Source of the DNA: Candidatus Omnitrophota bacterium | GTDB taxonomy: Bacteria > Omnitrophota > Omnitrophia > Omnitrophales > JACROU01 | Direction of reading: 5' to 3' | DNA: 64,000 nucleotides | Assembly: GCA_016214265.1 (NCBI GenBank) | Contig: JACROU010000024.1 | Span: 5,223-69,222, forward strand | Shown here: in pieces, positions 1 to 25,900 of the stretch | Numbering within the stretch: position 1 is the stretch's first letter | Layout of the letters: each line of letters starts with the position of its first letter | Made by a program: the position numbers and the translations under genes | The notes under the pieces: generated by a model | Told to the model about the DNA's origin: nothing | What the model saw: the letters and a program-made list of their open reading frames with translations, nothing else | Database searches by the model: none

Positions 1-3000
1 TTGAACCGGATGTCCATCCACATAGTCGATCGTGCCATTGACTTGATCAATGACTCTGAGAAGCGACTGAACGATATTCGTTTTTCCGCTCGAATCCGTG
101 ACGGTGCTATATCCATATTCTGCGCCGGCAAGAGTGGTCAGTTGGGTGAGTTTTCCCGAGGCGTCATAAAATCGGACTACGTTTAAATCATTTGTGATTT
201 GAGTTTCATTTCCCGAATAGGCGTATTTGAATGTGCCCAGAAGATTTCCGGCGCGCGTCACGCTCGTCTGGATAAGACGGCCAAGTGCGTCATAACTCAT
301 ATCCATTTGCGTGAGCACACCATTTTCTGTGGATTCAATCTGAACCACCTTGTCATTTTGAACAATCGAGCGGCTCCCGCTTGCACTCGTAAATTCAGCA
401 AGATGCGCCACGGACACAGGATTGTTGTTGGCATCCAGCTCTTCGGCGATTCTATATTGGCGGCCATCGGTCATCGTGAGCCAAAACGGTTTATCCTGAC
501 TGACTTTGAGAAGAGTTCCATCGGCATACTTCACCTGCGTGAGAGCCTGATTCACGAAAGTAAGCTCTTTTACATCCGGCGTGATAATCAGAGCATCTTT
601 GAGATTGCCGTTGGCATCATGTGTGAAATTCTTGATGACGGTTCCATCCGGCTTTGTGATTTGGATGACTTGATCATTTGAAATGCCGAATACGGTTCCG
701 TCATGATCCACAAGTTCTTTTAACTTCCCGTCAGAACCATAAGTCCGCTTGAGGCCGTCACGGGACACGATGAGCCCTTGGAGGAATCCGAGAGGGTCGT
801 TGGCGAGTGCATATTGAGTTTCGTTTCCGCTTGCATCCAGCACACGATTGATCAGTCCAGACTCATCAAAGAAAAATTGGGTGCCGTCGCCCCGAGTCCA
901 CTTTTTGATTGTGTTGGAAGTTGTGTACTGAACTATTTGAGGAAGCGGGCTTGCGGGATCCAGCGTCACGCCTCCGCTGATTCGGGCTTCGTATCCATCC
1001 GGGGTTTGCGTGATTTGATAAAGGAAGTCCGTTCCCTGATACGCGATTTTTGAAAGCTTGCTTTGCGTGAAGAAAAATTCTGTGCCGTCTGATTTCCTAA
1101 AATCTTCAATTTCTCCTTGTGCATTTAAGGTGACCCGGTTGTCTCCCTCAAAAATATGCGTTCTCAATAAATTGCCGGAGACACCAAACGCATAGGTGTA
1201 ATAAACCACGCTTCCATTCGCGAGCACTTCGGCCTGGGCTCGTCCATCACTGTTATAGAAAATACGAGTTCCTTCAGGACGAAGTTCTTCGACAATTTTT
1301 CCTGCCTCAAGCCGGTACAAAACTTTACTTGCCGTTTCAATCCATCCGCCTTGAAGCACACCGCTTGCATCCAGGCTGGGATCAATCAAACCGGCCTCAG
1401 TCCCATTCAGATTAAACGTGATATTGGTCTTGCGCTCCGGCAGCGCCGGCTGAGCAAGGGCATTCAAGATCACGAGATAATAGGCCGCCACATGACCACC
1501 CCCGCTGGTCGGCACATCGACCTGAAGCAGATTGCCGCCGGAAGTCAGCGTGACGGATTTTGTCATGGGTGTCCCGTCACTGGTATAGGCGAGCGTATAA
1601 CTCGGATTATTCGTCAGTGTTGGGGAGTTGAAAACCACTTCCGGCAATTTCGTTTCGAGCATCACGTTGAAATCGAGTTTTGTTTCATTTCCTGCGGGAT
1701 CTTGTTCTGCAATCGAAAGTGTGTTCACACCTTCCGTCAGTGTCACACTTTTTGTCTTTTGCACTCCATCGACTGTGTAGACAAGCGAGTAATCCGGCTG
1801 ATTCACTGAGACAGCCGATGTCACCACCACCTGTGGGGCAATCGTATCGAGTGTCACATCGAAATTTAATTTCGTTTCGTTTCCTGCCGGATCTTGTTCT
1901 GTAATCTGGAGGGTGTTCAGTCCTTCGACTAATGTCACAGGTTTTGTTTTTTGAACACCATCAACGGTATAAGTCACAGTGTAGTCGGGTTTGTTGGTCA
2001 GCGAAGCCGAAGTCGCGGCGACAACCGGACCAACCGTATCCAGCGTCACGTCAAAATTAAGATTCGTTTGGTTTCCAACCAAATCTTGTTCGGCGATCTG
2101 GAGCGTGTTTAATCCCTCAACCAATGTCACGGGTTTTGTTTTTTGAACGCCATCGACGGTGTACGAAAGCGTGTAATCGGGTTTATTCACAAGATTCGTG
2201 GAAGTGACAGTGATAGCCGGAGCAACAGAATCCAGTGTTACATTAAAATTAAGTTTCGTTTGATTACCGGCAGCATCCTGCTCCGAAATCTGAAGCGTAT
2301 TCCCTCCTTCGGTAAGTGTCGCTGTTTGCGTTTTCTGTACACCATCCACGGTGTAGGAAAGTGTGTAGTCGGGTTTGTTAGTGAGTACGGCCGAAATCAC
2401 GGCGACAACCGGGGCAATCGTATCCAGCGTCACATCAAAACTGAGTTTCGTTTCGTTTCCAGCTAAATCTTGTTCGGCGATCTGAAGTGTGTTGAGCCCT
2501 TCAGTCAATGTCACAGGTTTTGTTTTTTGCACTCCATCGACGGTGTACGAAAGCGTGTAATCAGATTTATTGGTTAACGCGACTGAAGTCGCAGCAACTA
2601 CCGGGCCAATCGAGTCCAGCGTCACGTCAAAATTCAGATTGGTTTGATTAGCCGCTGCATCCTGTTCCGTAATTTGGAGGGTATTTACACCTTCGATCAG
2701 CGTCACGGGTTTTGTTTTCCGAACTCCGTCCACAGTGTAAGTCAGTGTGTAATCGAGTTTATTTGTCAACGCGACTGAAGTCGCTGCGACAACCGGAGCA
2801 ATTGAATCAAGTGTTACATCAAAATTTAAATTCGTTTGATTACCCGCCAAGTCCTGTTCGGTAATCTGAAGCGTGTTCAGTCCTTCGACCAATGTCATGG
2901 GCTGTGACTTCTGTACACCATCCACCGTGTAGGCAAGTGTGTAATCGGGTTTATTCACAAGATTCGTGGAAGTGACCGCAACAACTGGCGCAACCGAGTC

Positions 3001-5937
3001 CAGCGTCACATCAAAATTCAGATTGGTTTGATTACCAGCCGGATCCGACTCGGTAATCTGAAGCGTATTCCCTCCTTCGGTAAGTGTCGCTGTTTGCGTT
3101 TTCTGTACACCATCCACCGTGTAGAAAAGTGTGTAGTCGGGTTTGTTCGTGAGTACGGCCGAAGTCACGGCGACAACCGGGGCAATCGTATCCAGCGTCA
3201 CATCAAAACTGAGTTTCGTTTGGTTTCCAGCTAAGTCTTGTTCGGCAATCTGAAGTGTGTTCAGTCCTTCAGTCAATGTCACGGGTTTCGTCTTTTGAAT
3301 ACCATCCACGGTATAAATCAGTGTGTAATCAGGTTTGTTCACAAGACCCGCAGAGGTAACCGAGACAGCGGGAGCAATTGAATCAAGTGTTACATCGAAA
3401 CTTAAATTCGTTTGATTACCCGCCAAGTCCTGTTCGGTAATCTGAAGCGTGTTCAGTCCTTCGACCAATGTTATGGGCTGTGACTTCTGTACACCATCCA
3501 CGGTGTAGGAAAGTGTGTAGTCGGGTTTGTTCGTGAGTACGGCCGAAGTCACGGCGACAACCGGGGCAATCGTATCCAGCGTCACATCAAAACTGAGTTT
3601 CGTTTGGTTTCCAGCTAAGTCTTGTTCGGCGATCTGAAGCGCGTTCAGTCCTTCGACTAGCGTCACTGCTTTTGTTTTTTGAACGCCGTCCACAGTGTAA
3701 GTCAATGTGTAATCGAGTTTATTTGTCAAAGCGACTGAAGTCGCAGCAACTACCGGAGCAATTGAATCAAGTGTTACATCAAAATTTAAATTCGTTTGAT
3801 TACCCGCCAAATCCTGTTCGGTAATCTGCAATGTGTTCAATCCTTCAACGAGTGTAACGGGACGCGTTTTCTGTGCACCATCAACGGTGTACGTCAGTGT
3901 GTAATCAGATTTATTGGTTAACGCGACTGAAGTCGCTGCGACAACCGGGCCAATCGAGTCCAGCGTCACATTGAAATTCTGGTTCGTCACGTTACCCGCA
4001 GCGTCTTGTTCGGTGATGGTGAGCGTGTTCAGTCCTTCCACGAGTGTCGTTGTTTGCGTTTTCGCTACGCCATCGACAGTGTAGGTCAGCATATATTCAG
4101 GCTTGCTCGTCAATGCGCTTGAAGTCACCAGGATCAGCGGTGCGCTATCCCAATACACCACATCCTGAAACACCGAAATATTCCCCCACCGGTCGGCGAA
4201 TGATCGAAGAATCGGGTTCGCGCCTTCTTTCAACTGAATCTGCTCTGTGTACGCCTCACCGTCAATATCCAGAACAAGTTCATAATTCGACTGATTCACA
4301 AGGCCCTTCGACAAGCGCGTCACCACCGGTGCGGTTGTGTCTTGCTCCACAAGTCCGAACTTCACGTCCAGATTCGTGTTCGTCGAATACCACCACGGCG
4401 AGTTATTCCTCACATCGATCTCGAAAAAGCGGATGTTCTTAATATCCAGCGACCACGTGTAATCCGCCAAATCCAGCATGAAGAATTTCTCCTCATTCTG
4501 CGTGATCCCCTGAAGCGTGACCGATTTGCGCTGGCCGTACCAGTCGGTGATCACCAGTGACGCTTCTGTGACATTACCTTTTAGCGCAAGCCCCATCCGT
4601 GAATTCTTCGAAAAATCAAAGTTTTGATAGTTAGAGTTTTCAATTCTTGCCGCAAGCGGATTCGGCTGATAATAATAGTAATAGTTATTCCAGCCTCCCC
4701 ACCAATAATTGTTCCATCCCCAATAATTTTGCGACGATGATGACAACTGAAATTGCGTGTAATCCGGCGTTTGTGTGGAATTTACGTATGACCCGTAATT
4801 TGTCGTCACCCACGCGGGCTGGCCATTCGTGGTAAGCGGCATGAGGCCCGACAAGCCGAAACCGTTCTGGCCCTGAATCACATTCGGCTCATAACTTCTC
4901 ATGTACTGATTTTGAAAATAATTCTGATAATAATAATTGCCGTAATAATTTTGATAATACCCATACCCCCATGAATTCCAATATCCGGAATAATAGTTAT
5001 ACGGATAACCCCAATAGGCATATCCGCCGTGGCGCGGTGAGTAGGGATAATAACCGTTATAGGCGTTTGCCGGCGGCTGGGTACGCACAAACAAATATCC
5101 CTGCTGCTGGCCGTAGCCGTTGTAGGGATTGTAGTAGTTGTAAAAATTGTAAAAATTATTCTGATTCTGAAGCGCCGTCAGTTTTATCTGCCGAATTTGA
5201 TCCAGATCGAGATAACCCGAAAGATTCGTCAGATCAATATCATAAATCCGCTCTGAGCCGTATGAATTGGTCTGTAGCAGGTCCAAACTTACTTTGTTGC
5301 CAAACGCGTCTTCCATCTCAAAAAGAATTTTTTCCGAGTTACTGTCAATCGCGAACCGGAGATGATTCAATTTGGAAAAATCCGCCGACTCCACGAGCGA
5401 CGTCGATTCTTTATCGTAACTGAAAATAACGCCCGGCGCGGTGCCGGGATTTCTCAGGTCATAATCGACTTCAACACCTTCTCTGGAATTACTGACCATT
5501 GATGAGTGCAAACTTTTAATACTGGCCCCTGCTGGCAATCCGGTTAAATCATTTTGAGTGAGATTCCAGCTGGAGCTGACTGGCTGAGCCTGTGTCGCCG
5601 TATTCGCGGTAACGGGCTGAAGGGTTGAGCTCTGCGTCATAAAAGACGTGGTGCTCGACTGACTGGCGTTTTGCGTTAAAGTATTTTGATAAACCGAAGT
5701 ATTTTGAGTTTGAGGCTGACTGGAATTAGCTTGGACGACTGGCTGACTTGGCGTTTGTGTCTGCTGAGCCACTGGGGTGGCTTGCGCAAATGCACATTGC
5801 TGGGCAAGAAATGAGATTAGCGTGAACGCGGCGACTGCGCGGAATAAATCTTTTTTAAACTTTTTCGTTCCTCGTCTCTCACCTCCTGGGTAGGTGGACT
5901 TTGAGGTTCGATCAAATTTTTTTTTGCTTGAGAACAA
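1..5937 (-). CDS. Giant secreted/surface protein that is 5'-complete and 3'-truncated by the window edge (>1950 aa). It has a signal peptide, a Gln/Thr-rich linker, a Tyr/Asn/Gly/Trp-rich low-complexity region, at least 13 tandem 64-aa Ig-like repeats, and then YD/RHS-type repeats that run off the window.
   Basis: Hand translation of the minus strand in one frame (codon top coordinate = 0 mod 3) is stop-free at every stretch checked: 5937..5341, 4980..4921, 3660..3421 and 1440..1021. That frame gives ...TKKFKKDLFRAVAAFTLISFLAQQCAFA (signal peptide), then a Gln/Thr/Pro-rich linker, then WNSWGYGYYQNYYGNYYYQN, then repeats VTLDSIAPVVA..KPDYTL.YTVDGVQK...TL.EGLNTLQI.EQDLAGNQT, then YD-like ...YGSDGKLKELVDHDGTVFGISND.... 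The gene is absent from the ORF track because it has no stop codon inside the window. The start is ambiguous: in-frame TTG at 5937 (GGGGAG 7 nt upstream) or TTG at 5961. A strong AGGAGGTGA Shine-Dalgarno sits 10 nt before an in-frame ACG at 5868 that is followed by a canonical KKFKK-hydrophobic-AFA signal peptide. No in-frame ATG occurs until 5640. Confidence 0.72.
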   Translation of the reverse strand, partial: MFSSKKKFDRTSKSTYPGGERRGTKKFKKDLFRAVAAFTLISFLAQQCAFAQATPVAQQTQTPSQPVVQANSSQPQTQNTSVYQNTLTQNASQSSTTSFMTQSSTLQPVTANTATQAQPVSSSWNLTQNDLTGLPAGASIKSLHSSMVSNSREGVEVDYDLRNPGTAPGVIFSYDKESTSLVESADFSKLNHLRFAIDSNSEKILFEMEDAFGNKVSLDLLQTNSYGSERIYDIDLTNLSGYLDLDQIRQIKLTALQNQNNFYNFYNYYNPYNGYGQQQGYLFVRTQPPANAYNGYYPYSPRHGGYAYWGYPYNYYSGYWNSWGYGYYQNYYGNYYYQNYFQNQYMRSYEPNVIQGQNGFGLSGLMPLTTNGQPAWVTTNYGSYVNSTQTPDYTQFQLSSSSQNYWGWNNYWWGGWNNYYYYYQPNPLAARIENSNYQNFDFSKNSRMGLALKGNVTEASLVITDWYGQRKSVTLQGITQNEEKFFMLDLADYTWSLDIKNIRFFEIDVRNNSPWWYSTNTNLDVKFGLVEQDTTAPVVTRLSKGLVNQSNYELVLDIDGEAYTEQIQLKEGANPILRSFADRWGNISVFQDVVYWDSAPLILVTSSALTSKPEYMLTYTVDGVAKTQTTTLVEGLNTLTITEQDAAGNVTNQNFNVTLDSIGPVVAATSVALTNKSDYTLTYTVDGAQKTRPVTLVEGLNTLQITEQDLAGNQTNLNFDVTLDSIAPVVAATSVALTNKLDYTLTYTVDGVQKTKAVTLVEGLNALQIAEQDLAGNQTKLSFDVTLDTIAPVVAVTSAVLTNKPDYTLSYTVDGVQKSQPITLVEGLNTLQITEQDLAGNQTNLSFDVTLDSIAPAVSVTSAGLVNKPDYTLIYTVDGIQKTKPVTLTEGLNTLQIAEQDLAGNQTKLSFDVTLDTIAPVVAVTSAVLTNKPDYTLFYTVDGVQKTQTATLTEGGNTLQITESDPAGNQTNLNFDVTLDSVAPVVAVTSTNLVNKPDYTLAYTVDGVQKSQPMTLVEGLNTLQITEQDLAGNQTNLNFDVTLDSIAPVVAATSVALTNKLDYTLTYTVDGVRKTKPVTLIEGVNTLQITEQDAAANQTNLNFDVTLDSIGPVVAATSVALTNKSDYTLSYTVDGVQKTKPVTLTEGLNTLQIAEQDLAGNETKLSFDVTLDTIAPVVAVISAVLTNKPDYTLSYTVDGVQKTQTATLTEGGNTLQISEQDAAGNQTKLNFNVTLDSVAPAITVTSTNLVNKPDYTLSYTVDGVQKTKPVTLVEGLNTLQIAEQDLVGNQTNLNFDVTLDTVGPVVAATSASLTNKPDYTVTYTVDGVQKTKPVTLVEGLNTLQITEQDPAGNETKLNFDVTLDTIAPQVVVTSAVSVNQPDYSLVYTVDGVQKTKSVTLTEGVNTLSIAEQDPAGNETKLDFNVMLETKLPEVVFNSPTLTNNPSYTLAYTSDGTPMTKSVTLTSGGNLLQVDVPTSGGGHVAAYYLVILNALAQPALPERKTNITFNLNGTEAGLIDPSLDASGVLQGGWIETASKVLYRLEAGKIVEELRPEGTRIFYNSDGRAQAEVLANGSVVYYTYAFGVSGNLLRTHIFEGDNRVTLNAQGEIEDFRKSDGTEFFFTQSKLSKIAYQGTDFLYQITQTPDGYEARISGGVTLDPASPLPQIVQYTTSNTIKKWTRGDGTQFFFDESGLINRVLDASGNETQYALANDPLGFLQGLIVSRDGLKRTYGSDGKLKELVDHDGTVFGISNDQVIQITKPDGTVIKNFTHDANGNLKDALIITPDVKELTFVNQALTQVKYADGTLLKVSQDKPFWLTMTDGRQYRIAEELDANNNPVSVAHLAEFTSASGSRSIVQNDKVVQIESTENGVLTQMDMSYDALGRLIQTSVTRAGNLLGTFKYAYSGNETQITNDLNVVRFYDASGKLTQLTTLAGAEYGYSTVTDSSGKTNIVQSLLRVIDQVNGTIDYVDGHPVQ
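1600..4140 (-). repeat. Intragenic tandem array of about 13 copies of a 192-bp unit, each encoding a 64-aa Ig-like / 'VDTIAP'-type domain, inside gene A.
   Basis: The 8-mer tccagcgt recurs at 2423, 3191 and 3575, with spacings of 768 and 384 bp (4x192 and 2x192). Near-identical antisense ORFs at 2143..2466 and 3028..3234 in the track confirm the DNA-level repetition. The translated units are in-frame and begin with D-V-T-L-D-(S/T)-I-A-P-V-V. Confidence 0.85.
4650..5160 (-). other. Tyr/Asn/Gly/Trp-rich low-complexity segment of gene A (about 170 aa, aromatic-rich and prion-like).
   Basis: Minus-strand translation of 4980..4921 gives WNSWGYGYYQNYYGNYYYQN. The surrounding DNA is dominated by tat/tac/aat/aac/ggn/tgg codons (the plus strand shows ata/att/gta/cca runs). 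Confidence 0.7.
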
Positions 5938-6068
5938 TTCATTGCTCCCCGAATGCCCCAATCCTTTGGGTGACTAAGATCCATCTTCAGTTTTCTGTTT
6001 ATCCGTGTTTTTCCACTTGAAATTCCCAGGAATACAATTTCAAAGGAAGAATCAACATGTTGGTGCAA

Positions 6069-6097
6069 ACCTTACCTGCTCACAAAATCGATGTCAA
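6069..6097 (-). promoter_or_regulatory. Candidate promoter for gene A (TTGACA-N17-TAAGGT).
   Basis: On the minus strand, TTGACA is the complement of 6092..6097 and TAAGGT the complement of 6069..6074. It lies in the 240-bp gap between the gene B stop (6176) and the gene A start. Confidence 0.3.
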
Positions 6098-6175
6098 GCG
6101 ATTAGTCGAAAATAGTTGAAAATTCTCAGAAAAATCGTTTATTTTTCATTAAATACTTTTAACAAGCTTGAATTA

Positions 6176-9100
6176 CTAAGCAGCGGTTTCAAGAATCCGG
6201 GTTTTCTGCCAGAGACGAATTTGTTCCTCAAGAATGGAAGGCAAAAGTTCGTAGGTAGAGCTGTTTATATCCATGTGGCGGAAAAGATAATTCCAGTCGC
6301 TCTTGTTACCAAAGGCATCGAAAACAGTTCTCAAAAGAGCCGACCGATAAGCTTCTTTCTTCAGCCCATTTTTTTGATGGACAACACGGAAAGCGCTCTC
6401 CGGCCAGCTTTCATTAAATTGATGATTGAGGAAAACAACCTGGTCCGGTCGTAATTCTGTCACATTTCCATCGGGAAACATTGCATCAACGATTCTCGTT
6501 TGAATTCGTGAAAGAAGAGCTTTTAGATCGAGCCGGGTTGTCCTTTCTAAATTACCCCACTTGACAAGATACACGTGCCTGTCTTTCAAAAGTGAGCCGA
6601 ATTCATCCTCCACTTTTCTAGCTATTTCCTCGTCTGGGACAAGAAAAATCACACCCTGTGTCCGGTAATCACTGCGAAAATCCCGTTGCTTATCCAACAG
6701 TTGCTCCAAAACATCTGCATCGAATTTCATAACAAGCGGCGTAAAACGAGGCGATTGAATCACTGAAGGTCCAAGGTTTCGCCTGTTCTCCCCAAGACTT
6801 TTTCCGGAAGATGCCGGTTCGGGGGCGGTAAAGACAATGCGGTATTCATATACGCCATATGGATTTTTATAATAATCCTTCGTGTAACGCAATTCGCCTA
6901 AAATTTTGTCGGAGTCAATTGGCGGTTCCCAAGCTCCACTATCTTCCCGCTTCTGTAAATAGAATGCCAATCCGCCGCCTCGATCTGATAACACCAACGG
7001 TTGTTCTATTGTGATAATGTCATGATTTTTACTTTTTGCTTCTAACGCAGTCTCCAACGCCCAAAGGATACGTATGAAAAAGGCATGAGAGGTGTCGGCG
7101 GGCGTAGAAAAATCAGGCACGCTTTTGTAAATTTCGGACAAACGTGTTTTTAAAATCTCATAATCCTGGAGAAATTCAGCCATTAATCTTCCCTTAAATT
7201 CTTTTTCTTCTCCCACAAGCATTCTGCCAGTCTGATGTTTTGCCAACTTTGGCCAAAGATCGTATAATTCAGTTGATTGTTGTTTTTTGACTAATTCTTG
7301 CTTCTCGATCACTGCTCGCTCCAATTGTAATGGGACAGCATTCATCTCTGTTTGTAAAACCCGCAACTCATTATCGGAAGGTTTTTGATAGTACGCGTGA
7401 CCGGGGAGCTTTTTGGCAATAAAATCCACATTCTTTGCTGTCCCGGAATCCAGATCAGAAATCCGGCTTGCCCTTTCCAGAAATTCAGTAACCGCTTTCG
7501 AAAAATCATTTCTCATTTTATCGGGTATTTTTGCGTCAGAAACGATACCGAGCATAATTTTACTGGCATCCTTGAGCCAAACTTTCTGCCTTTCAACATA
7601 TTCTTGCGGCGTGTCATGAAATTTTCCATGTCTGAGGTGAAACAATTCTGCTTGTATCTTGAGAAACTGGATAAGCAGAGAATCATTGGATGTGTAACAA
7701 GTTAGGGTTTGCATAGCTCCGGTCTCATCCGTAAACATAATAAATTCCGGCTTAAAATTGGCGAACCCTCCCCCATGAATAAGTACGATAAGCCGCCTAT
7801 AGGTGTCAAAATGAGGCGAGATGCTGGGATTGGGGTTAGATGGATCAAATGGTTTTGGTGGCATCGGTGGAGCTGGAAGAGAATAATATTGAGGGTGATC
7901 CTCCACGTACTGCAACGATTTACGGGCTCCGTCAAAATCTCTGGCCCAAATTTGATCAAGAATTTCTCTTTGTGTTTGTCGAATGAAACTCATTCGATCT
8001 TCAACCCTTTTCTTTGAAAGATATGTAGGGATGTTGCTGATAGCTCCAGTAACAAGACAACCAGCGCTAATCAGCGCAAAAAGAAGACAGCCTTTTGAAA
8101 AACGTCTGGAGGGCTTTTTGTCGGTGTCAAGGAGCGCAACAACGGCCTGCGCTTTTTCTGATGACGCTGTTTTTCTGACTTTCTGAGCTGGTGATGGTGA
8201 TTTCGGCTTTCCGGTAACAGCCGCCGCAGTCGTGGCGCTGGCAGTTTTGGCTACAGCGTTTCGTTCCGACGGCTTGTTCAGCTGAAAAAGCACCGTCAAT
8301 TTGAAACGCTGCCCGACCTGGGGGGCAAAAGCACCGTTCACATCCACTTGTTCCGGCAACTTGATCGATTTAAGTCCGTTTTTATCAGCGGGAATTGGCG
8401 GCTGAAATTCCCGGGTCGCTGGATTCTCGCGCTGGACGAAAACAGTCAGCTTTCCCTCCTTTGTGTCAAATTCCAAGTTGTTGAGCTGAATCGGCTCGTT
8501 CTTCCTGCGGCGACTCGAAATTTCAGCAAGAATGCGCTTGAGAATTCTCAGATTATTTGGAACTTTGGGATCTGACGCTGAAAGCTCGAGCTCCCTTTGA
8601 TACGCGAGAATGACCTGCTCATAAATGTTGTCAGGTGTCGGCGGCAAAGTGCCTGATGCGATACCCAAACTTTTTCCGGAAGAAGCCGATTCCAGAGCGG
8701 TAAAAACAATTCGGTATTCATATTCACCCATGGGGCAACATATCCGTCTGACGCGAAATTCATCAAGGATAGATTGGTTGCCAATAGTCGGACACCACGG
8801 CTCATTCCCTTTCCGTTTTTGTAAATAAAAAGCTAACCCACCTCCTGGAGCAGGCAAAAATAGCGGTTGTTCGATACGAATAATTTCACCTCGAGATTTT
8901 TTTTCTTCCAAGATTTGCTGCAAAGTCTCTTTAACTATTGTCATAAAAGCCTTAGGGTGCCCGTTCGCTTGGTTATCTCGTGGCATCCCGTATAAATACT
9001 TCTCCACAATTTCACGTCCGCGAACAAGTTCATTGACAGGTCTGTCGTAATCACGAATCTGATGAGCTAGTACCGCTAACCATAACTCGAACAATCTATC

Positions 9101-16900: not shown

Positions 16901-19900
16901 AAACATCCGGTTTGTCTGGGCTTCAAGCGCGGCTTTGTCTTTGGAAAGTTCTTTGTGACGCTCGCTGAGCATGGCGCGAATCGAATCTTTTTGTTTTTCC
17001 TTTAGCTGTTCCTCGAGCCGGTTCATGCCTTCCCGGTTAATGTTCCAGGTTTCAAAAACGGCTTTGTCGCGTTTTGCGAATACGTCAACGTTTGCAAACA
17101 GCTCTTGGGCGATAGTTTGAATTTCACTCTCATTAATGACACCACGGTCAACAAGCTCTCGCAGATAAACTGAAAGCGCTTCCCGAGGATTAGCGAGGAA
17201 GGCGTTAATGTCATCAAGATTGTTGAGTCCTTTGACATAGTCAATTGCCAGTTGAGCGACGCGGTCTCCTTTTCGCGCGTCTTCTTCCAACGTATGGGCC
17301 CGATTGAAAAGTCGTAAGTCATGTTTCGGAATACTGTGGCCACGAATTTCTTCCTCAAGGTCATTATCGATTAACTGCCAGAAAAGCCGATCGTGCACTT
17401 TCCGCAGCTCTCCGGTTCGTTTCAGGAAATGGCCGTGCACATCCACGTAGAAGATGGTTTTGCCCTGAGCATTTTTCTCGTTGCTTGTTTGCACTGCCAG
17501 AGATTCACGAGAACTCATGGATTTTGTATCCGGATTAAAACGGACAACAAAAACACGGTCGTCCACTTTCGATTCACGCATCATCGCTCCGGCTTTTTGC
17601 TGCGCCTTTTTCTCGATTTCAGCGTAAATTTTCCCGAGCTCTGTGGTGGCCTTGAAATCCGCATATTCTTTTTCGAGCTGCTCGAGTTTTGCTTGTGCTT
17701 CTTCCTTCGTCATTCCCGCGGGCAATTCTTTCCTTCCCTCCGCGTAGGAGCGCATCGCCTCGATTCCCGTCTTTTCATCATGGAAGCGGGCGAGCTCTTT
17801 GTATTCCGCTTCATTCACAGGGGCGTTATTTTCCCGGTCAGCCTGAATGGTCTTTGAAATTAACGGAGCGATAAATGCGCCTAGCTGCGGCAGTTCTTTT
17901 AGCAAATCATCCCATGTTTTTCGCTCGGCTGTAACCGCTGTGGTAATTTTTTTGGCCAGCTTGTCTATTTCCGTTGTAACTTTTGGCTCCGCTCGATTGA
18001 CAATAGCCTCTGCTTTATCGCGTAATGCTTGCGCTTTTTCAGGCTGTTTTTCCTGAATGGCGTCGGCTTGGCGCAGTAAATCAACGGCCTTTTGCAAGTT
18101 AGCCAGTTTTCCTCGTTTGATTTTTAATTGCTCCAAAGCGGATTTTAAGTTTCCTTCAATTTCATTAAGAGAAGTCTGGTGATCACTCGCTCCTTTACCC
18201 CCCTTAGCTTCTTTAAGATAAGTCCGTATTTTTTCGATGCCATTGTCTTTAAGTTGATCGTAAGCGCTCTGAGTTTCATTATCCTTATCCGCTTTCTTTA
18301 TTTTGTTGATGGTTTTAATGATTTTCGCTAGCTGCGAAACCATCTTCTTGGCGTCGATGGTTTTATCCTCTGGATGATTCAGGCTGTAAACCAGCATCTG
18401 AACCCCGTTGATTAACAATTCCTTTTCTTCATCGGATACGGGAACCTTCTCAGCAATCAGGGCACGGGCAATGTCGCGTATCACAGATTGAGCACGCATA
18501 TTCGATGAGAATGGTGAAGCGAGAGCATATCCGATTTTGGCCAGCGCGTTTCTCACCGCGCCCCGTTGCTCATGAAGAGTGAGGGCCAGTGCCGTTTGTC
18601 CAATTTCAGCTGGACCGGGAATATCTTTGTAAGCGCCGGGATTTTGTTTGGTCTTGAAATCCCGGGCAGCAATCGAAGCATCCACATTCGCGGCGAAGCG
18701 GCGAATTTCATCCTGACGCATTTTCGCGATGCTTCCCCCATTCTTTGACGCGGCGACCGCCATCAAAGCTGCCTGGGCATCCAAACTAATAGGAGAGGTT
18801 TGAAGCAGCAAGGCCAGCTGGGCCATGATTTTTACGGGATCTTCTTTAGAGACTGAAGCCAAACTTTGTGCGGCACCCTGAAGTTTTCCGACAGAGTTAT
18901 TCCTGAAATAATTCGCGAATCCGATTTCCAGGGAATTCCACGTTTGTGCGACGCGGGTTCTAACACTGGGCCACAACAGGTCACGCGGCGATGCCAACGT
19001 CACCATGGCATTTCGTACCCAACTCTTTAATCCCTTTAACGGTCCCTTGATTTCTCCAAGCGTTTCATCAAGCCGGGCACGAGCGACCGCTTTTTTCTCC
19101 ATCGTTTTATCCATTTTGTCTTTCAAATCCTGGCCGTGGTAGAAGCGCTTCTCCTGCTCCTTCTCAAAATTGATAATGGGCTTGACCGCGTTCTGCAATT
19201 GTCTCGCGACATTTTTATCCGCGATATTTGCTGCAAGCTTATCGACGAGTTCTGCCATCGCGAGGCCACGGTTTCGATTGCTTAGCGCAGAAGTAATCTC
19301 CGCCTTAATCTCGTGCGTGCTCAAATCAACGCCGGATTTGCTCAAGAGATCAAGAAAATTCGTCATGGGAAGTACGGTTTTGAGTAGATCCGAATTGATC
19401 ATCCAGACCGGAATCGTTCTATCCTTCATCAGCGCGGCCAATGCGGCAATCAACGCTTTCTCGTCCTCATCTTTCGGAGGCGGAATACCCAACACTTTAA
19501 GCAGAGGTTTAAGTTTCTGCACAGCTCCGCCAACCCCTTCTTTCGATGTTTTCATCGCGGCGAACGCCTTCACCAAATCTTCACCGGTCGCTGTCAATTT
19601 GCCGCGTCCGTCCACATATCCCTGCTCGCGGGCCGTTTTGACTAATTGCTGGAATTCCGCGTCCGTAACAGATCCTTTTTCGATAATATTTTCTTTCTCA
19701 AGTTCTTTGACGTTATCGGAGGCGGAAATAGCACGGGTGGTAACGAAATGCTGAGCCGAGGGCTGCGGAGCCACTCTGGGGATATCGGTTTCGCGAATTT
19801 TCTGATTGATGAGACGTGCGACTTCGGCGGGACTTCTGGCTTCGGCAATGCCATGTTCTTTCAAGCGTTGGCCGTTTAAGTTTAATTCTTTCGTTTGATC

Positions 19901-22900
19901 AAACGCTTCACGTGTCGGCGCCCGCGCCAGATCCGGAACGACCATCCCCACTTTAACGCCTTCCACCTGTGACTCAATCACTTTACCGGTGGCATCGACC
20001 ACGATATATTTTGAACCATCTGCCTCCAGATACAGCGTTTTCGACGTATCGTTTAGCGTCAGCTCGCCCATCTGATTCATGGCTTTGATTTGTGCCTCGA
20101 TCTGATTCCGAATCGCTTCAGGCAATGCACTGGCTCTCGATGCGGTTTTTAAAATGGCCTCGAGGAATGATTTGTTTTTCTTTAAATTATTGCGCAGGCC
20201 GTCAATTCCTTTCTGAGCGCCGCCTAAATTCGTGTCGGTGTTCTTTCCTTTCTGCTCCTGAAATTTAGCACGCTCTTTTGAGAGCACTTGGATGATAGCG
20301 TCCTTCTCGCTTGCCGATAGTTTTGTATTCGCTAAAACATTGGCTTTCATATCTTCCAGGAATGTCACCAGCGCGGCATCCTGCGAATCGGTGAGGGCCC
20401 GATACATATTTTTTTGCACCGAATAGGTTTCGTTGTCCTGAAATGTGTTCCGGAGGGCAACGACGGCCAATGGGACGCGGCGGGTTTTGCCCGGAATTTC
20501 ATTTTCAACAATTTGCCAGTTTTCATCAACGATCACTTCTCTTGAATTTCGAATATCGTCCGTGGTTTTAAACTCTTCGATTACTTTACCTTCACGGTCT
20601 CTGGCCGCAAATCCGCCAATGAAACTCACATCCACTGAATGATATAAAGCCATGTTGTTGACGCCGGCATCACTAGGGCTTGTCGTAAAGAGTCCATCCG
20701 GTCGATTGACTTCTGCGGCAAGTTGTTCGGCTGTGATTTTCCCTTCCCGGAACATCTGGGCAGCACCCGCCGTGCGGGCGTAAACGAATTGATCGGAAAC
20801 TTTTCCGTTTTTGTCCGTCACGCGAATGCGGACACCTCGATCGCGTTTGACCAGCTGTTCAAAGTCATACATATTGGTCTCGGAATTGGCAAAAGCGTGA
20901 AAAGCCACATCCGGTCCCGTGGAAACGTCGACACCGCGTGTCGCGCCCAGGTTAAAAAATACGCCTACCCGTTCTCCACGTGCCTTGGCGTCCATCAAAT
21001 AAGATTTCAAGCCTTCCGACAGCGATTCCGTCGACCTTACTACTTTCCCATCCTTCATCGTGAGCTTAATCCACTTGGTTCCCTGATCTTTGATGAATAC
21101 CGTTTGAAACTGACCGCTTGCCAATAATTTTTCCTGTAACGGATTGATCATCTCCGCGGTTTCATCGATGTCTGATTGCCCATCTAGAAACACGTGATGA
21201 AAACTTGACGAGTCTTTATCCACGTTAATATTATCAAGTGCGGTGCGAATATCTCTTGATTGCGAAATATTGTCTTTGGTGAACCACCCCTGATCAAAGG
21301 CATTGGCGTACACATATTTGGCAACGTCCACATTATAAATTTTCTCTAAAATATTTTTCATGTGCATCAGTGTGCCTGAAAACCCGCTGAAATCGGATCC
21401 ACCTTTCCGGAACGCCATAATCGTTTCAAGCCGTGAGGAACGAATAGACTCGGCCGACTTTTTAATCTTTGAGAGAAAATCTTTGCGCGCTTCCGCCTTC
21501 TTAATGTCTTTTCCCAGGAATCTTAAGAAAATCAGCTGAGTGAACGCCTGCAGGTAGGCGTCGGATTGCTGCAATTGCGGAGCAACCGCATTACCCGCCA
21601 TCACTTTGATCGTGTCTCGAAGCTCAAAATATTGCGTGAATGAAATCAGATTTTCTTTGGCAGCGCGTTTGAATGTTTCCTTCGCCCGAAGCGCCACAAT
21701 TTTGGTGTCCGTGGTCGGTGTCCCTTCAATCAGAATTTTTATTTGCGCCGGTGTGAGCCCCATATCCCGGATATCGACCATGAGCGGCTGAAGCAGATTG
21801 GTCTCGCTTTGCGTGAGCTGACGCGGCGCTTTGACGCCCTCTTTCTCGAACATTTCAGCGTAATAAGCGATTTGACGACCTTCATATTGTTTGAGCGAAT
21901 TAGACAGGCCAACGAGTGAAGCGCGGAATTCTTTGACGATTTCGCGGCGATCTTCGACAAGCGAGTCTAATTCGGAATCTTTCATCTGAATCATTTTCGC
22001 CGCTTCAGCAGCCGTAACGCCCGGCATTTTCTTCGCTAGGGCTTCTGACAAAACATCCAGCAGTTCTTTATTGTTCAAATCAAACTTCACATCGTGAATC
22101 ACCGCGGCTTTTCCCTGGGCTTTTTGCTCTAAATATTGTGTCCACGACATCGGGCCGATGATTCTGTCTGATTTGTGGTCATACAACCTGACGTAAGTCA
22201 GACTTCTTAACGCGTCCAGATAATCTTTTCCTTTAAGCTCGCCGATTTTGCCTTTCCCCTTAATCTCGAAACCGAGAAGGATGTCATCAATCTCTGAAAT
22301 GTTATTTTGCGCGCTTTCGGCAATTATATCTTCCGAATCCTTGCCTTGTTTTTGTACGCCATTGGCATCGGCGTTGGTATCGGCTTCATCGTAAATCGTG
22401 CGGTTATTGGAGACCATCAGTTTGTGAAACTCGATTAAATTCTTCTGCGCTTGCAAATCGCGGACGTTTAACTGTTTCTCACCCTTGGTGTCCTTAAGCT
22501 CGTTATTGAGAAAATCAATGGTGGTGGCCTCCACGATGATAATGCCGCCTTCTGCTTTCATCTTTCTTAACTTTTCAAGCTTTTCGGTATCGCCTTGCGC
22601 AATGGCCTGCAAGTCCTCTTGCTTGATCACCATGCGATTCATCTTCTTTCTCTCTATCATTTTATTTAAATCTTTATCCTCCACCGTTTCCGTAAACAGC
22701 ACTTCATTCGGTAGAGCAAATATCGTGATATCCCCGTTCACCCGGCCGATGGAGTCCAGATGCTTTTGGAGCGCAGAATTTTTATTTTTTTCTTTATCGT
22801 TTTTGAAGGCTTGATTCAAATGCGCGGCAGCAGCAAAAATAACCGCTGTTTTTCCGGTACCGGCAGGAATTAAGTGGAAGGTGTTGCCATTGATGGCGAG

Positions 22901-25900
22901 ATTCACGACGGCCAGAAATACTTCCACATCATTTCGAATTCCCAGCTGAGAAAAACCATCCATCGTTTTGACGTAATCATCGACAGCTTCGTTAATGAAT
23001 ACGGCGAGAGCGCGCTGTTCTTTCGTTCCCACGTTTTCATCCGCGCGCATAATCACTTCTGTTACACCATTCTGGGAAGTGATGACTTCCTTATAGATAA
23101 CACCGCCTAGCGCTTTCCCCTTGCCGATGAGCGTTTTTTCAATAATTTCCCTGTGCGAACCCACTGCGCTTTTTCTCGCTTCTCTTGATTTGCCGCTATC
23201 CGATAGCGCCTGCCGTTTGGTGTCTCGCTCCGAAACCACCTTTCCGCGTTCTGCTTCAAGCGATGCAGTTACTCGCGCCGGCGGACCACGAGGTGCTTCG
23301 CGTTCGAGAAGGGCGATTTGTTGTCTGATCGTGGTCTCTTTCGCCAAAACTGATTTGAGATCCGACTGAGCCTTGGCGAGTTCTGCTTCCAGTGCCGCCT
23401 CTTGTTCCGGCCCGGCTCGTGTCGGCATGGATTTTTTGAGAGCATCGAGACGTTTCATATCGGCTAAACGGGTAGATTCCAAAACTTTCAGTTCATGGCG
23501 CAATTGAAGCAGTTGTTCGCTTGCTACCCGTGCTGCAGCCTTTTCGGTAGCCTTCGTCGCCTGTGGCACAGCACTTGGAGACAAAACATTTTTAAGTCCC
23601 ATCGTCTGAATAATCGAGGTCGCAAATGAACGCAGACCGATAATGTCTAGCCGCGCTAGTTCTAATGCTTTGGCCTTGGCATCAATTTCATTCGGATCCG
23701 CTTTCTCAGATTTCCTGAGCGCTTCAAGTGCGCTCCGTTGGGCCTCATACCGGCTTTCTTGTTGTGAAATAACCTTGGCCATGATTTCGAGCCACGCTTC
23801 CGCCTGCTTTGCATTGGATCTCAATGATGCATCGGTGAGCAGCTGGCTGATCTCAAAGGCCGTCAGATTTTCGTTGTTGCTAAGTTTTTGCTGAATGGCT
23901 GTTAAAAGCGCTGTTCCTGCAAGTGCAAAAGCTTGAGTCGGCCCTTGAATTTGAGCCGTTTTCAGAACTGCGATTTGCTGATCCGTTTCTCTGACTTGGG
24001 CCTCAAGTGTTTGCGCTTGGGCTTGCACTTCAGCTATCCGGGAATCCATCGCGGCTTTCATTGCGTCTGTTAAAACGTAATCGGGTGAGGCCTTGAGCGT
24101 TTCCAGCTCTTTGGCAAGCTGATCATTTTGAGTCTCGAGCTGGGCGATTCTTCTTTCGTAAGCTGCGCGCGCCGCGGAATCCGTTTCGACTTGAGCCAAT
24201 TTTGAAAGCGATTTTATCCGCATCTGATTAACACCCAATTGGCCTTCCAGGAAACTGGACCTGGTAACATAAGCTGGATTAACGCCACGCCGTAGAGCTT
24301 CTGCCTGAGTGCGTTTTAAATTTGTGAGATTTTCAGTTGCACGGCTAGCCTCCTGACGGGATTGATTGGCTTGGGTGACTAGCTGTCCGATTTTGTCGGC
24401 TCGGGATGACTCTTCGGAAGTCAATTTCTGCTTGGCCGTGACAAGGTATGAATCTGTTTTCACAACCTCTCCGGCCGCGTCGAGGTAATTGATTGAGACT
24501 CGTCCAGCGCTATCAGCCGTTATTTCGGACCGTGCGAGCGATTGAGAGGCATCGGCCTCAATATTCATCACCAGTTTCAGGTTGGTATCATAAACAGCCA
24601 TCTGCTTGTCATTCAGCACGGAAAGTCTTGAAACCAAATTGCCCGTTGCGTTTTGAATAATTATTTCCGATTGATTTTTTCTGGCGGAATCGTTGGTTGA
24701 AATTCTGGTGGTGGTTGAACCATCTGCTGATGCAACAGAGCTGATTTTAAGTCCGTTATGCCCTGCAATCGTCATCAGCACGTTTCCATTAGCATCCTGA
24801 GCCACAAATCCTACGTCGTTTCGCGCCAAACTCATAATCGGCATTGGACGACCCTCGGCATCTTTGACAAGTCCGGTCTGCCCCCCCTGTTTGAATACAT
24901 CCACTCGCAAAATATTTCCTTGCTGATCCATGGTGATGGAATATTCCCCACCTTCGGAGGTAATCACTTTTGCGACAAGATTTCCATTTATGTCTCGCGA
25001 GGTATCCAGTCCGATGATATCGCCTTTCAGCTCAAGCTGGGGAGTCTCTCTGTCACCAAAAGTAGTTCGATTATCTCCACGGTTGATATTGAGCGCTGTG
25101 CCTTCCAGGACAATAGAATGATCTGTCACGATGAGACTGTCTGTTTTATCTACACTCGAACTGAATATAATTGCCGCCGTGCCTTCCATCACTGCGACGG
25201 CAACTTTTCCGCCCTCACGAACTTCTCCTCCCAATTGAGCCATGACGACTTGACCGCGCGCAAGGGCATTCACCAGCAAACGAGGTGAACCCTGATAATT
25301 TTCGAGAATCGAAATCAGAAGCACCTTGTCGATCTTGTTGATATTTTCAGCAAAAAGCCGGAGTGTTTCGGCATCGATTTCGGAGAGATCTCGATTCATA
25401 AATAGACGAGCGACGAGACTCGCGGCATCCGTTGATTCGGAGGCAACTGAGTCCATCAAATTCTCCACGGCTCGTTCATACGCTTCCCTGGCAGTAACCG
25501 CCGCTGGCGCTTCCTTGACAAGGCCTTGCTGTCTTTCAATCATCTGAGAGATTTTAATGGCCAGTGCTTTCGGATCCTTCAAATCCGCTTCGCTGATGTA
25601 GAGAATTTCCTTACTGTTCGAATCAATGCTGTAAGTTCCGGCTCCGATAAATACAGCAACTTCGTTGAGAAGCCCAATTCCGCCAGTCATTTCGAGGGCC
25701 AATTTTATTCCCCGGTCCAACGAATTTTTTACCTGCCCCGCGTCTCCCCGAGTCATCTGCACTTCCGCCCCTTCATTAGTAAGGCTTGCGGTACCGAAGA
25801 GTTCAATCTCAAGCTCGCTTAAAGCGATCAACTCAACGTTTCCGTTCACCAAAGCATCTTCCAGGATGGCCGCTGCAAGCTCCATTTGTCCCTGAAGGAC

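Follow-up and report, generated by a model that had tools for sequence, protein, structure and literature searches.

The locus described here raises a simple question: why do two modules of one bacterial gene, which have otherwise diverged substantially, share a stretch of almost identical DNA? The gene (hereafter gene B) lies in a window of 64 kb, i.e. the whole stretch of DNA that was analysed, which belongs to an 82-kb contig and is filled by five large genes (table 1). Its product, a large envelope protein of an uncharacterised family, is identical to the NCBI protein HZC17_02615 of Candidatus Omnitrophica bacterium and is known from a single contig of a metagenome-assembled genome (MAG). 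We first set out the layout of the gene and then weigh the possible origins of its repeat.

Table 1. Position of gene B, its segments and its upstream neighbours in the 64-kb window.
Feature	Positions	Strand	Extent	Basis or remark
Giant ORF with RHS repeats	13970..57565	minus	14,531 aa	upstream of gene B
AAA_14 + DUF4143 ATPase gene	12216..13658	minus		GC 0.41 (low); between giant ORF and gene B
Gene B	6176..12034	minus	1952 aa	single ORF
Signal-peptide-like segment (...SSICQA/AP)	11960..12034	minus	aa 1-25	Kyte-Doolittle peak aa 5-23 and sequence reading
N-terminal domain, TIKI/ChaN/EreA/TraB-fold	10523..11959	minus	aa 26-504	SLG at its end
Tract copy 1 (block domain of module 1)	10137..10523	minus	codons 505-633	repeat finding, blastn, codon comparison
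Linker 1, basic, S/T/A/K-rich, low-complexity	9941..10135	minus	aa 634-698	
Hydrophobic helix 1	9854..9940	minus	aa 699-727 (peak 702-720)	Kyte-Doolittle
Module 1 post-TM domain, mainly helical	8654..9853	minus	aa 728-1127	C-terminal YEYRIVFTA...GKSLG
Tract copy 2 (block domain of module 2)	8268..8654	minus	codons 1128-1256	repeat finding, blastn, codon comparison
Linker 2, basic, low-complexity	8093..8266	minus	aa 1257-1314	
Hydrophobic helix 2	8024..8092	minus	aa 1315-1337 (peak 1315-1333)	Kyte-Doolittle
Module 2 post-TM domain	6785..8023	minus	aa 1338-1750	C-terminal YEYRIVFTA...GKSLG
C-terminal alpha/beta domain	6179..6784	minus	aa 1751-1952 (~200 aa)	common only to P0036 and P0037

Two modules in a nearly unknown family

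The initial annotation had proposed a twofold module of about 630 aa. Indeed, gene B contains two tandem in-frame modules of 623 aa each (aa 505-1127 and aa 1128-1750), and every motif listed at that time (the conserved block, the S/T/A/K linker, the hydrophobic helix, DRM.IR..QREILDQIWA, GGGLAFYLQKR and YEYRIVFTA) was retrieved in both copies. Within each module, a block of 127 aa precedes a linker that is basic and of low complexity; a single hydrophobic helix comes next, and last a helical domain, approximately 400 aa long, with GKSLG at its end.

An exhaustive profile search of 1.84 billion protein representatives yielded a family of three members, namely gene B and two relatives designated P0036 and P0037. 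P0036 is a single-module orthologue of 1328 aa with the same domain order as gene B (27% identical), and the P0037 locus is a 1.8-kb fragment that is not informative on module number. A protein search with the P0036 module as query returned P0036 alone, the metagenome contigs scanned for relatives gave only the P0036 contig, and the genome contigs scanned gave none. Pfam and NCBIfam yielded no relevant match for gene B, P0036, P0037 and four homologues; the module profile did not match any PDB sequence, and an AF2 model of module 2 with the C-terminal domain (four-sequence alignment, pLDDT 53) had no Foldseek PDB match at E <= 0.001. The protein family is essentially unknown and undescribed, whereas the mechanism invoked below for its repeat is already known.

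As the single-module orthologue P0036 exists, the two-module form arose by duplication of a module, and this change was an in-frame tandem duplication with its junctions in the SLG-containing linkers between domains. The duplication is old, since synonymous sites are saturated and amino acid identity between the modules is down to 43%.

A tract of near identity with abrupt ends

Repeat finding and blastn delimited two tract copies (8268..8654 versus 10137..10523) of 387 bp, with 96.9% identity and 12 mismatches, slightly wider than the near-identical 370-bp repeat initially reported (8281..8650 versus 10150..10520), the existence of which is thus borne out. The copies lie 1869 bp apart, i.e. 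623 codons, in frame, and no other near-identical repeat was detected within the 64-kb window. A codon-by-codon list places the edges of the tract at 504/505 and 633/634, where identity switches within one codon.

The comparison of dN and dS between module copies called for by the initial annotation gave the following values. Within the tract (codons 507-633 versus 1130-1256), amino acid and nucleotide identity both reach 97%, with a dS of 0.084 and a dN of 0.014 (dN/dS approx. 0.16), whereas the other 459 aligned module codons are 43% identical in amino acids and 56% in nucleotides, with a saturated dS of approximately 1.6 and a dN of 0.52. Synonymous divergence is therefore about 20-fold lower in the tract, and the chance of obtaining 370 matches out of 381 at a background identity of 0.56 is approximately 4e-77. 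Moreover, residues identical in both copies use the same codon in 94% of cases inside the tract versus 50% outside.

Two further features set the tract apart. Its differences are unevenly distributed, six of the 11 falling within 66 bp (Fisher p = 0.005), and its GC3 is 0.58 versus 0.39 for the rest of the modules. The corresponding block of P0036 has a GC3 of 0.40, so that the high value of the tract is not intrinsic to the block domain; it could, however, have other causes than the one favoured below.

Origin of the near-identical tract

Any repeat of this kind, 387 bp long, 97% identical and 1.9 kb apart, is of the type that confuses assemblers, and a single MAG contig is its sole source. 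The contig could then be a chimeric or mis-phased product of short metagenomic reads, in which the second near-identical block, or all of module 2, is spurious. Nevertheless, 12 sites differ between the copies and the longest run of perfect identity is 87 bp, so that the two are resolvable with 150-bp reads or k-mers above 87. Both copies are also embedded in diverged homologous flanks (43% amino acid identity), in perfect register inside a single unbroken ORF of 5.9 kb. A de Bruijn assembler would collapse a repeat, not create diverged flanks around it, and a simple chimera of two single-module genes cannot give the observed order. An assembly artefact is thus distinctly unlikely.

The initial annotation had offered strong selection on the sub-domain as one possible cause of the identity. 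The block is indeed a conserved domain, 40% identical to that of P0036, and the dN/dS of the tract would fit purifying selection acting on the protein since the original duplication. However, protein-level selection alone cannot explain the identity, because synonymous sites are nearly identical too (dS of 0.08 versus approximately 1.6) and the edges are abrupt; as a sufficient cause it is refuted. Synonymous sites are saturated even in strongly conserved motifs of the rest of the module (QREILDQIWA, GGGLAFYLQKR and YEYRIVFTA, the most conserved of them, display a dS of at least 1.1), and between lineages the conservation of the block does not exceed that of the C-terminal domain (39%). This explanation is accordingly highly improbable.

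Selection could instead act on the nucleotides themselves, for instance if both copies carried an embedded RNA element, a regulatory site inside the gene or a gene on the opposite strand. A 75-codon antisense ORF does occur in both, as is trivially expected of near-identical DNA, but the tract contains no notable promoter or terminator signal, and its 387 bp far exceed typical regulatory sites. An RNA element was rejected, as the tract had no Rfam match and, with folding z-scores of 0.62 and -0.11, neither strand was more stable than expected. Nucleotide-level selection therefore has scarcely any likelihood.

A further possibility is a recent replacement or insertion of the block by some route different from homologous conversion, for instance a second partial duplication into module 2 via illegitimate recombination. 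The exact coincidence of the tract with the block domain and its very sharp ends would fit such an event, which would nonetheless need two precise in-frame junctions. Furthermore, the linkers following the blocks are homologous between modules (18 of 50 positions identical over columns 121-180; 71% of 28 and 45% of 22 in 30-column windows), so the old duplication already included a block there. At its 5' end, the tract coincides with the old duplication junction, as expected of conversion limited by homology, and its uneven internal divergence points to multiple events. Consequently, we regard this route as doubtful.

Intragenic gene conversion is probably the best explanation of the tract, gene B then consisting of two old modules with a recent overwriting. 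One copy of the 127-codon block recently overwrote the other, leaving a dS of 0.08 and abrupt ends. The initial annotation had preferred conversion to a single old duplication, and this preference is supported by the roughly 20-fold drop in dS, the sharp boundaries and the contrast in codon identity. More generally, the tract combines a local collapse of dS relative to flanking homology and abrupt boundaries, both of which mark gene conversion, with an enrichment of GC at silent sites, which is supportive but not strictly defining.

The overwriting would have been a RecA-type intragenic gene conversion, in which the two direct repeats recombined homologously and non-reciprocally. On its 5' side the tract ends at the duplication junction, past which there is no homology, and on its 3' side it ends where the indel-rich linker begins and homology has decayed. 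Since in-tract differences cluster and GC3 is raised, conversion was probably repeated; for the ‘ongoing’ conversion suggested initially, these are indirect signs only. Repeated GC-biased conversion may keep the block an island of concerted evolution, from which the rest of the module would have escaped. Neither the block nor the C-terminal domain has a further copy in the giant ORF, the other neighbours or the 34 homologues of the N-terminal domain. A consequence of conversion would be that the two modules offer almost the same block domain, presumably to one common partner, and the 387-bp direct repeat could itself mediate the loss or gain of a module.

Membrane topology and the SLG motif

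With Kyte-Doolittle 19-residue means of 2.15 (aa 5-23), 2.25 (aa 702-720) and 2.01 (aa 1315-1333), the three hydrophobic segments have the length and hydrophobicity needed to span a membrane. Positive charges flank each helix on both sides, which makes the positive-inside analysis ambiguous. The two internal hydrophobic helices noticed in the initial annotation exist, but the architecture described there as unusual is not so for the phylum, as a signal peptide followed by sparse single TM helices is common in long Omnitrophota proteins. Nevertheless, duplication of the module creates a parity paradox, the two helices of gene B being in conflict with the single one of its orthologue P0036. Internal K/R-rich and C-L-L...C segments were also considered as lipoprotein signals and rejected (poor lipobox, 200 aa into each module).

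An (A/S/K)SLG motif is present at every domain junction (aa 503, 1122 and 1746 of gene B; aa 509 and 1132 of P0036), and it occurs five times, with a spacing of approximately 400 aa, in the family member P0009, the body of which is unrelated. Taken together, the 34 N-domain homologues show no enrichment of SLG; only gene B, P0036 and P0009 do. Gene B and its relatives could conceivably be self-processing polyproteins, in which the TIKI-fold peptidase would cut at (A/S/K)SLG, the freed block-linker-TM-domain modules would insert singly, the block would dock the neighbouring giant RHS-type protein and the 387-bp repeat would let module number vary by recombination. With modules cleaved and inserted independently, the parity paradox would disappear; even so, we consider this reading a long shot.

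An N-terminal domain with a TIKI-type fold

The N-terminal domain is a predicted hydrolase-like domain of the TIKI/ChaN/EreA fold, with the TIKI alpha/beta architecture, a parallel beta-sheet core and an intact catalytic signature (E83-x-H85, E119, R391 and GGFH416-419). Twenty-one sequences share [E/D]83-x-H85, E119 and H419, along with R391, without exception, and in their linear order the two His and two Glu match those of RRSP (E3900/H3902/E3930/H4030). The domain of gene B had no Pfam or NCBIfam match at the gathering threshold, and is thus a fold-level relative rather than a member of a curated family; PF04187 gave weak matches in four of 21 homologues (best E 0.0075), and the domain profile matched no PDB sequence.

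Compared with the superfamily of TIKI, TraB-PrgY, ChaN, erythromycin esterase and RRSP (PMC6254334), the domain differs in being recognised by no Pfam or NCBIfam model at threshold, in having its core split by a helical insertion of approximately 230 residues, and in sharing only 9-18% sequence identity with solved members. This likeness concerns the N-terminal domain and not the repeated block. Dozens of very large multi-enzyme proteins of Omnitrophota and Elusimicrobia begin with this domain, which defines a broader and so far undescribed branch within the superfamily of TIKI hydrolases.

A giant-ORF neighbourhood

P0036 lies 121 bp downstream of an ORF of 17,359 aa, which is orthologous to and collinear with the 14,531-aa ORF upstream of gene B (31-45% identical over the last ~3,300 aa). 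Adjacency of the family to a giant ORF is thus conserved in the two Omnitrophota lineages compared. The ATPase gene intervening in the present window is probably an insertion and is mentioned for context only.

Long TM-punctuated proteins of the same phylum have been described (West-Roberts et al. 2023, bioRxiv 10.1101/2023.11.21.568195; Nielsen and Lui 2026, bioRxiv 10.64898/2026.06.07.730766), and they share with gene B a signal peptide, isolated TM helices hundreds of residues apart and a giant-locus setting, gene B lying immediately downstream of an ORF of >14,000 aa. T2SS and pilus genes, PilZ and glycoside hydrolases are among the neighbours of giant loci given there, whereas no T2SS/pilus, PilZ or glycoside-hydrolase gene was found within the 64-kb window. 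Gene B, by contrast, is just 1952 aa long, and its module and C-terminal domains lack Pfam content and are matched by only two relatives; the accessible text of both reports contains no description of its family.

Comparison with known cases of concerted evolution

Gene conversion causes concerted evolution of bacterial paralogues and intragenic repeats, as in tufA/tufB, in rRNA operons and in surface proteins with tandem repeats (e.g. Rib/alpha-C and SasG/Aap). Its occurrence in prokaryotes has been surveyed (PMC6053082). The repeat of gene B is probably a clean textbook case of partial concerted evolution within a single bacterial gene, and implies no new mechanism: an ordinary evolutionary process is met here in a very rare protein family. 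Its main value thus lies in the context, namely a near-unknown family, a synteny with orthologous giant ORFs in two lineages and an N-terminal domain of a TIKI branch, which together provide handles on the processing and anchoring of giant Omnitrophota proteins (catalytic residues, a candidate cleavage motif and the topology paradox).

As in known bacterial examples, synonymous sites are nearly identical within otherwise diverged duplicates, the tract ends sharply, the direct repeats share a replicon, and the tract is enriched in GC. However, gene B differs from these examples in that two 623-aa modules lie in one ORF and only one fifth of each is homogenised, whereas in most repeat proteins whole short repeats are homogenised across many copies. 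Here, conversion is read from two copies in one gene rather than from a phylogeny of sister genomes.

A recently copied tract in a duplicated module

Gene B is a single open reading frame (ORF) whose product is identical to hypothetical protein HZC17_02615 of a Candidatus Omnitrophica MAG, its sole source being one 82-kb contig. Repeat finding and a blastn self-comparison of the gene both reveal one long near-identical direct repeat, or tract, of 387 bp (96.9% identity, 12 mismatches), the copies of which lie 1869 bp, i.e. exactly 623 codons, apart from start to start. The 370-bp repeat reported in the initial annotation falls within these two copies, and all the motifs from which a twofold module had been proposed are found in both modules by global protein alignment. 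Each module consists of a block domain, encoded by the tract, a basic linker, a hydrophobic (TM) helix and a post-TM domain.

Features of the gene B region (window coordinates unless marked aa)
Feature	Position	Strand	Description
Downstream gene	1..5640	minus	at least 1,880 aa; runs off window start
Ig-like repeats of downstream gene	1583..4086		about 12 tandem 192-bp (64-aa) Big_13 repeats
Gene B	6176..12034	minus	single ORF, 1952 aa
Tract copies	8268..8654 and 10137..10523		direct repeat
N-domain	10523..11959	minus	TIKI/ChaN/EreA/TraB/RRSP fold
Module 1	aa 505-1127		tandem with module 2
Module 2	aa 1128-1750		tandem with module 1
ATPase gene	12216..13658	minus	AAA_14 + DUF4143; GC 0.41 versus about 0.47 around; between giant ORF and gene B
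Giant ORF	13970..57565	minus	14,531 aa; sole Pfam content RHS repeats; gene B downstream
Upstream ORF	57771..63410	minus	1879 aa

The 64-kb window holds no second high-identity repeat, its one other repeat array being the Ig-like repeats of the downstream gene. These are 65-80% identical at the DNA level and, in contrast to the gene B block, not homogenised; this gene, which also has a signal-like N-terminus and RHS repeats, looks like an adhesin.

Divergence between the two modules (codon alignment, Nei-Gojobori distances)
Region	aa identity	nt identity	dS	dN
Tract, codons 507-633 versus 1130-1256	97%	97%	0.084	0.014
Rest of modules, 459 aligned codons	43%	56%	about 1.6 (saturated)	0.52

Only 11 of the 381 bases of the tract interior differ (seven synonymous and four non-synonymous changes), and a run like this would arise at the background identity with a probability of about 4e-77. 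Where the copies share a residue, the codon is also the same in 94% of cases within the tract versus 50% outside. Yet the best-conserved motifs beyond the tract, including DRM..QREILDQIWA and YEYRIVFTA..GKSLG, still show dS of at least 1.1, so that purifying selection at the protein level cannot explain the tract: its DNA was itself copied recently between modules. Rather than one old duplication, the initial annotation had proposed ongoing gene conversion or strong selection on this sub-domain; the contrast in dS supports conversion, and the motifs conserved elsewhere argue against selection as a sufficient cause.

A function at the nucleotide level (RNA element, regulatory site or antisense gene) could also preserve the tract, and a 75-codon antisense ORF does exist in both copies, as is trivially expected of near-identical DNA. 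However, no Rfam match was obtained in 5500..14500, for neither strand does tract RNA fold more stably than shuffled sequence (z = 0.62 and -0.11), and promoter and terminator scans of the tract gave nothing notable. That the second copy is an assembly artefact is unlikely, as the 12 differing sites and perfect-identity runs of at most 87 bp make the copies separable by ordinary reads. Moreover, each sits in its own diverged yet homologous flanks inside one intact 5.9-kb reading frame, and the order of gene B is not obtainable by a simple chimera of two single-module genes.

Both edges of the tract are abrupt. On the 5' side, codons 493 to 504 all differ and the tract ends at the old duplication junction: block 1 is preceded by the N-domain tail (..AAAASLGF) and block 2 by the module 1 tail (..GKSLGIASGT), which are non-homologous, so that conversion cannot reach further upstream. 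On the 3' side, all codons differ from 634 on, several of those listed (e.g. 638 and 639) only synonymously, and the tract stops at the first codon of the basic S/T/A/K-rich linker, where homology between modules is still recognisable but with indels and low identity. An end at this decayed linker is the outcome expected of homology-dependent conversion, and the homology of the linker indicates that the old duplication already had the block at that position.

Gene B family and genomic setting

Pfam and NCBIfam gave no match for gene B. When 5.8 billion proteins were searched by word index, 34 relatives emerged, all large (1.3-3.3 kaa) and aligning solely to aa 10-490 or so; those named by their source are Omnitrophota (with Candidatus Auribacter) or Elusimicrobia/Endomicrobium. 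An exhaustive HMMER search of 1.84 billion representatives with a two-module profile matched just two proteins besides gene B: P0036, of 1328 aa (E = 1e-31), and P0037, which is a fragment of 373 aa (E = 6e-4). Further module searches of genome contigs, metagenome contigs and word-indexed proteins yielded no additional relatives. The block and C-terminal domain are absent elsewhere in the window and in the N-domain homologues.

P0036 has the parts and order of gene B, module number apart: N-domain, SLG, block, linker, TM, post-TM domain, GKSLG and C-terminal domain, with one module only. Since its length plus 623 aa gives that of gene B, the latter is the module-duplicated form. The two modules share 43% identity with each other and about 26% with P0036, which places the duplication after the P0036 lineage had split off.

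On the 421-kb JGI contig Ga0187892_10000005, a 17,359-aa ORF precedes P0036, with 121 bp between them. The last 3,300 aa or so of the two giant ORFs are collinear (31-45% identical), and each has a gene-B-family gene downstream; thus, the pairing is conserved in two divergent lineages. The ATPase gene is probably a later insertion, because the related locus has just the 121-bp spacer there. Upstream of the giant gene, an ORF with an N-terminal hydrophobic segment and P/Q/A-rich linkers shows no Pfam/NCBIfam match and no similarity to gene B or the giant ORF. Omnitrophota giant genes are treated by West-Roberts et al. 2023 (10.1101/2023.11.21.568195) and Nielsen and Lui 2026 (10.64898/2026.06.07.730766), in the consulted sections of which the gene-B family is not described.

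N-domain and junction motif

The N-domain is covered by no curated family model. Going by their PDB descriptions, we take 2rad/2qgm, 6xcq and the TraB chain 8bqs_DQ to belong to the TIKI superfamily; HopBA1 (5T09), ChaN (2G5G), RRSP, PMT and the Ere family (Bcr135) are explicitly included in it (PMC6254334). The invariant residues of the N-domain ([E/D]83-x-H85, E119, R391 and GGFH416-419) match, in linear order, the 2His/2Glu signature of this superfamily (PMC6254334), and weak PF04187 (ChaN, Tiki superfamily) matches occur in 4 of 21 homologues. The N-domain, a putative hydrolase (peptidase or esterase), is related to the TIKI superfamily by fold and is not a member of a curated family. It heads the 34 large relatives (P0002-P0035), whose bodies carry varied enzyme domains, among them phosphoglucomutase, nucleotidyltransferase, hexokinase, sigma-70, kinase, NUDIX and CPBP protease.

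Structural matches of the N-domain
Structure	Protein	Score
2g5g	ChaN	10.3
2rad / 2qgm	Ere-like proteins	9.5 / 8.5
5t09	HopBA1	9.0
8bqs_DQ	TraB-family protein	9.0
6xcq	EreC	8.7
5w6l	RRSP	8.4

Gene B contains SLG three times (0.7 expected), at aa 503, 1122 and 1746 (window about 10520, 8663 and 6791), and P0036 has it at aa 509 and 1132, always at domain junctions; G-x-S-L-G is invariant in a four-sequence alignment. P0009 has only the N-domain in common with gene B, the rest of its body being unrelated and free of internal sequence repeats, but it contains five [AG][AS]SLG motifs about 400 aa apart (aa 609-2153) and six SLG in all (1.0 expected). In these three proteins, SLG is often part of G-K-S-L-G or A-S-L-G. 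The junction positions, the spacing in P0009 and the protease-like N-domain suggest that SLG could be a motif for proteolytic processing or for junctions, an improbable reading because SLG is not enriched in the remaining N-domain homologues.

Topology

Gene B has an N-terminal signal-like segment and, as first annotated, two internal hydrophobic helices (Kyte-Doolittle). This layout is not unusual for the phylum, contrary to the initial annotation: in the giant-gene studies (10.1101/2023.11.21.568195, 10.64898/2026.06.07.730766), a signal peptide with an isolated TM helix every few hundred residues is usual in long Omnitrophota proteins, predictions that their authors caution are unvalidated. 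A question of parity nevertheless arises, P0036 having one helix versus two in gene B. One helix separates the N-domain and block, on one side of the membrane, from the post-TM and C-terminal domains across it. With two, the module 2 post-TM and C-terminal domains of gene B would lie opposite in side to their orthologous counterparts, and its 97%-identical blocks in different compartments. The conflict would disappear if one helix did not cross the membrane, if cleavage of the chain preceded insertion, or if gene-B-type proteins fell outside standard rules. Positive charge on both sides of each gene B helix does not decide orientation. Both pre-TM linkers of gene B (aa 634-698 and 1257-1314) are K/R-rich and strongly basic, whereas that of P0036 (aa 636-690) is strongly acidic (DTDDDEESEDSEPEPAE); such a charge reversal beside a membrane helix could have consequences for topology.

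Probable gene conversion and known systems

Six of the 11 differences within the tract fall in codons 572-593, a span of 66 bp (Fisher p = 0.005). Each block copy has a GC3 of 0.58, compared with 0.47 for the N-domain, 0.42 for the C-terminal domain and 0.39 for the modules outside the tract; in P0036, the block (0.40) is below the remainder of the gene. Clustered differences and raised block GC3 fit repeated, GC-biased conversion, without being proof of it. The best explanation for the tract, and a fairly likely one, is intragenic gene conversion between its two old tandem modules, probably on more than one occasion. The biology around the tract may deserve further study: an orphan family of three members linked to giant ORFs, a TIKI-fold branch not yet described, and the parity paradox. 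GC-biased gene conversion reportedly operates in bacteria, as Lassalle et al. are said to have found in 2015. Gene conversion is an already known process, to which the gene B tract probably adds another case.
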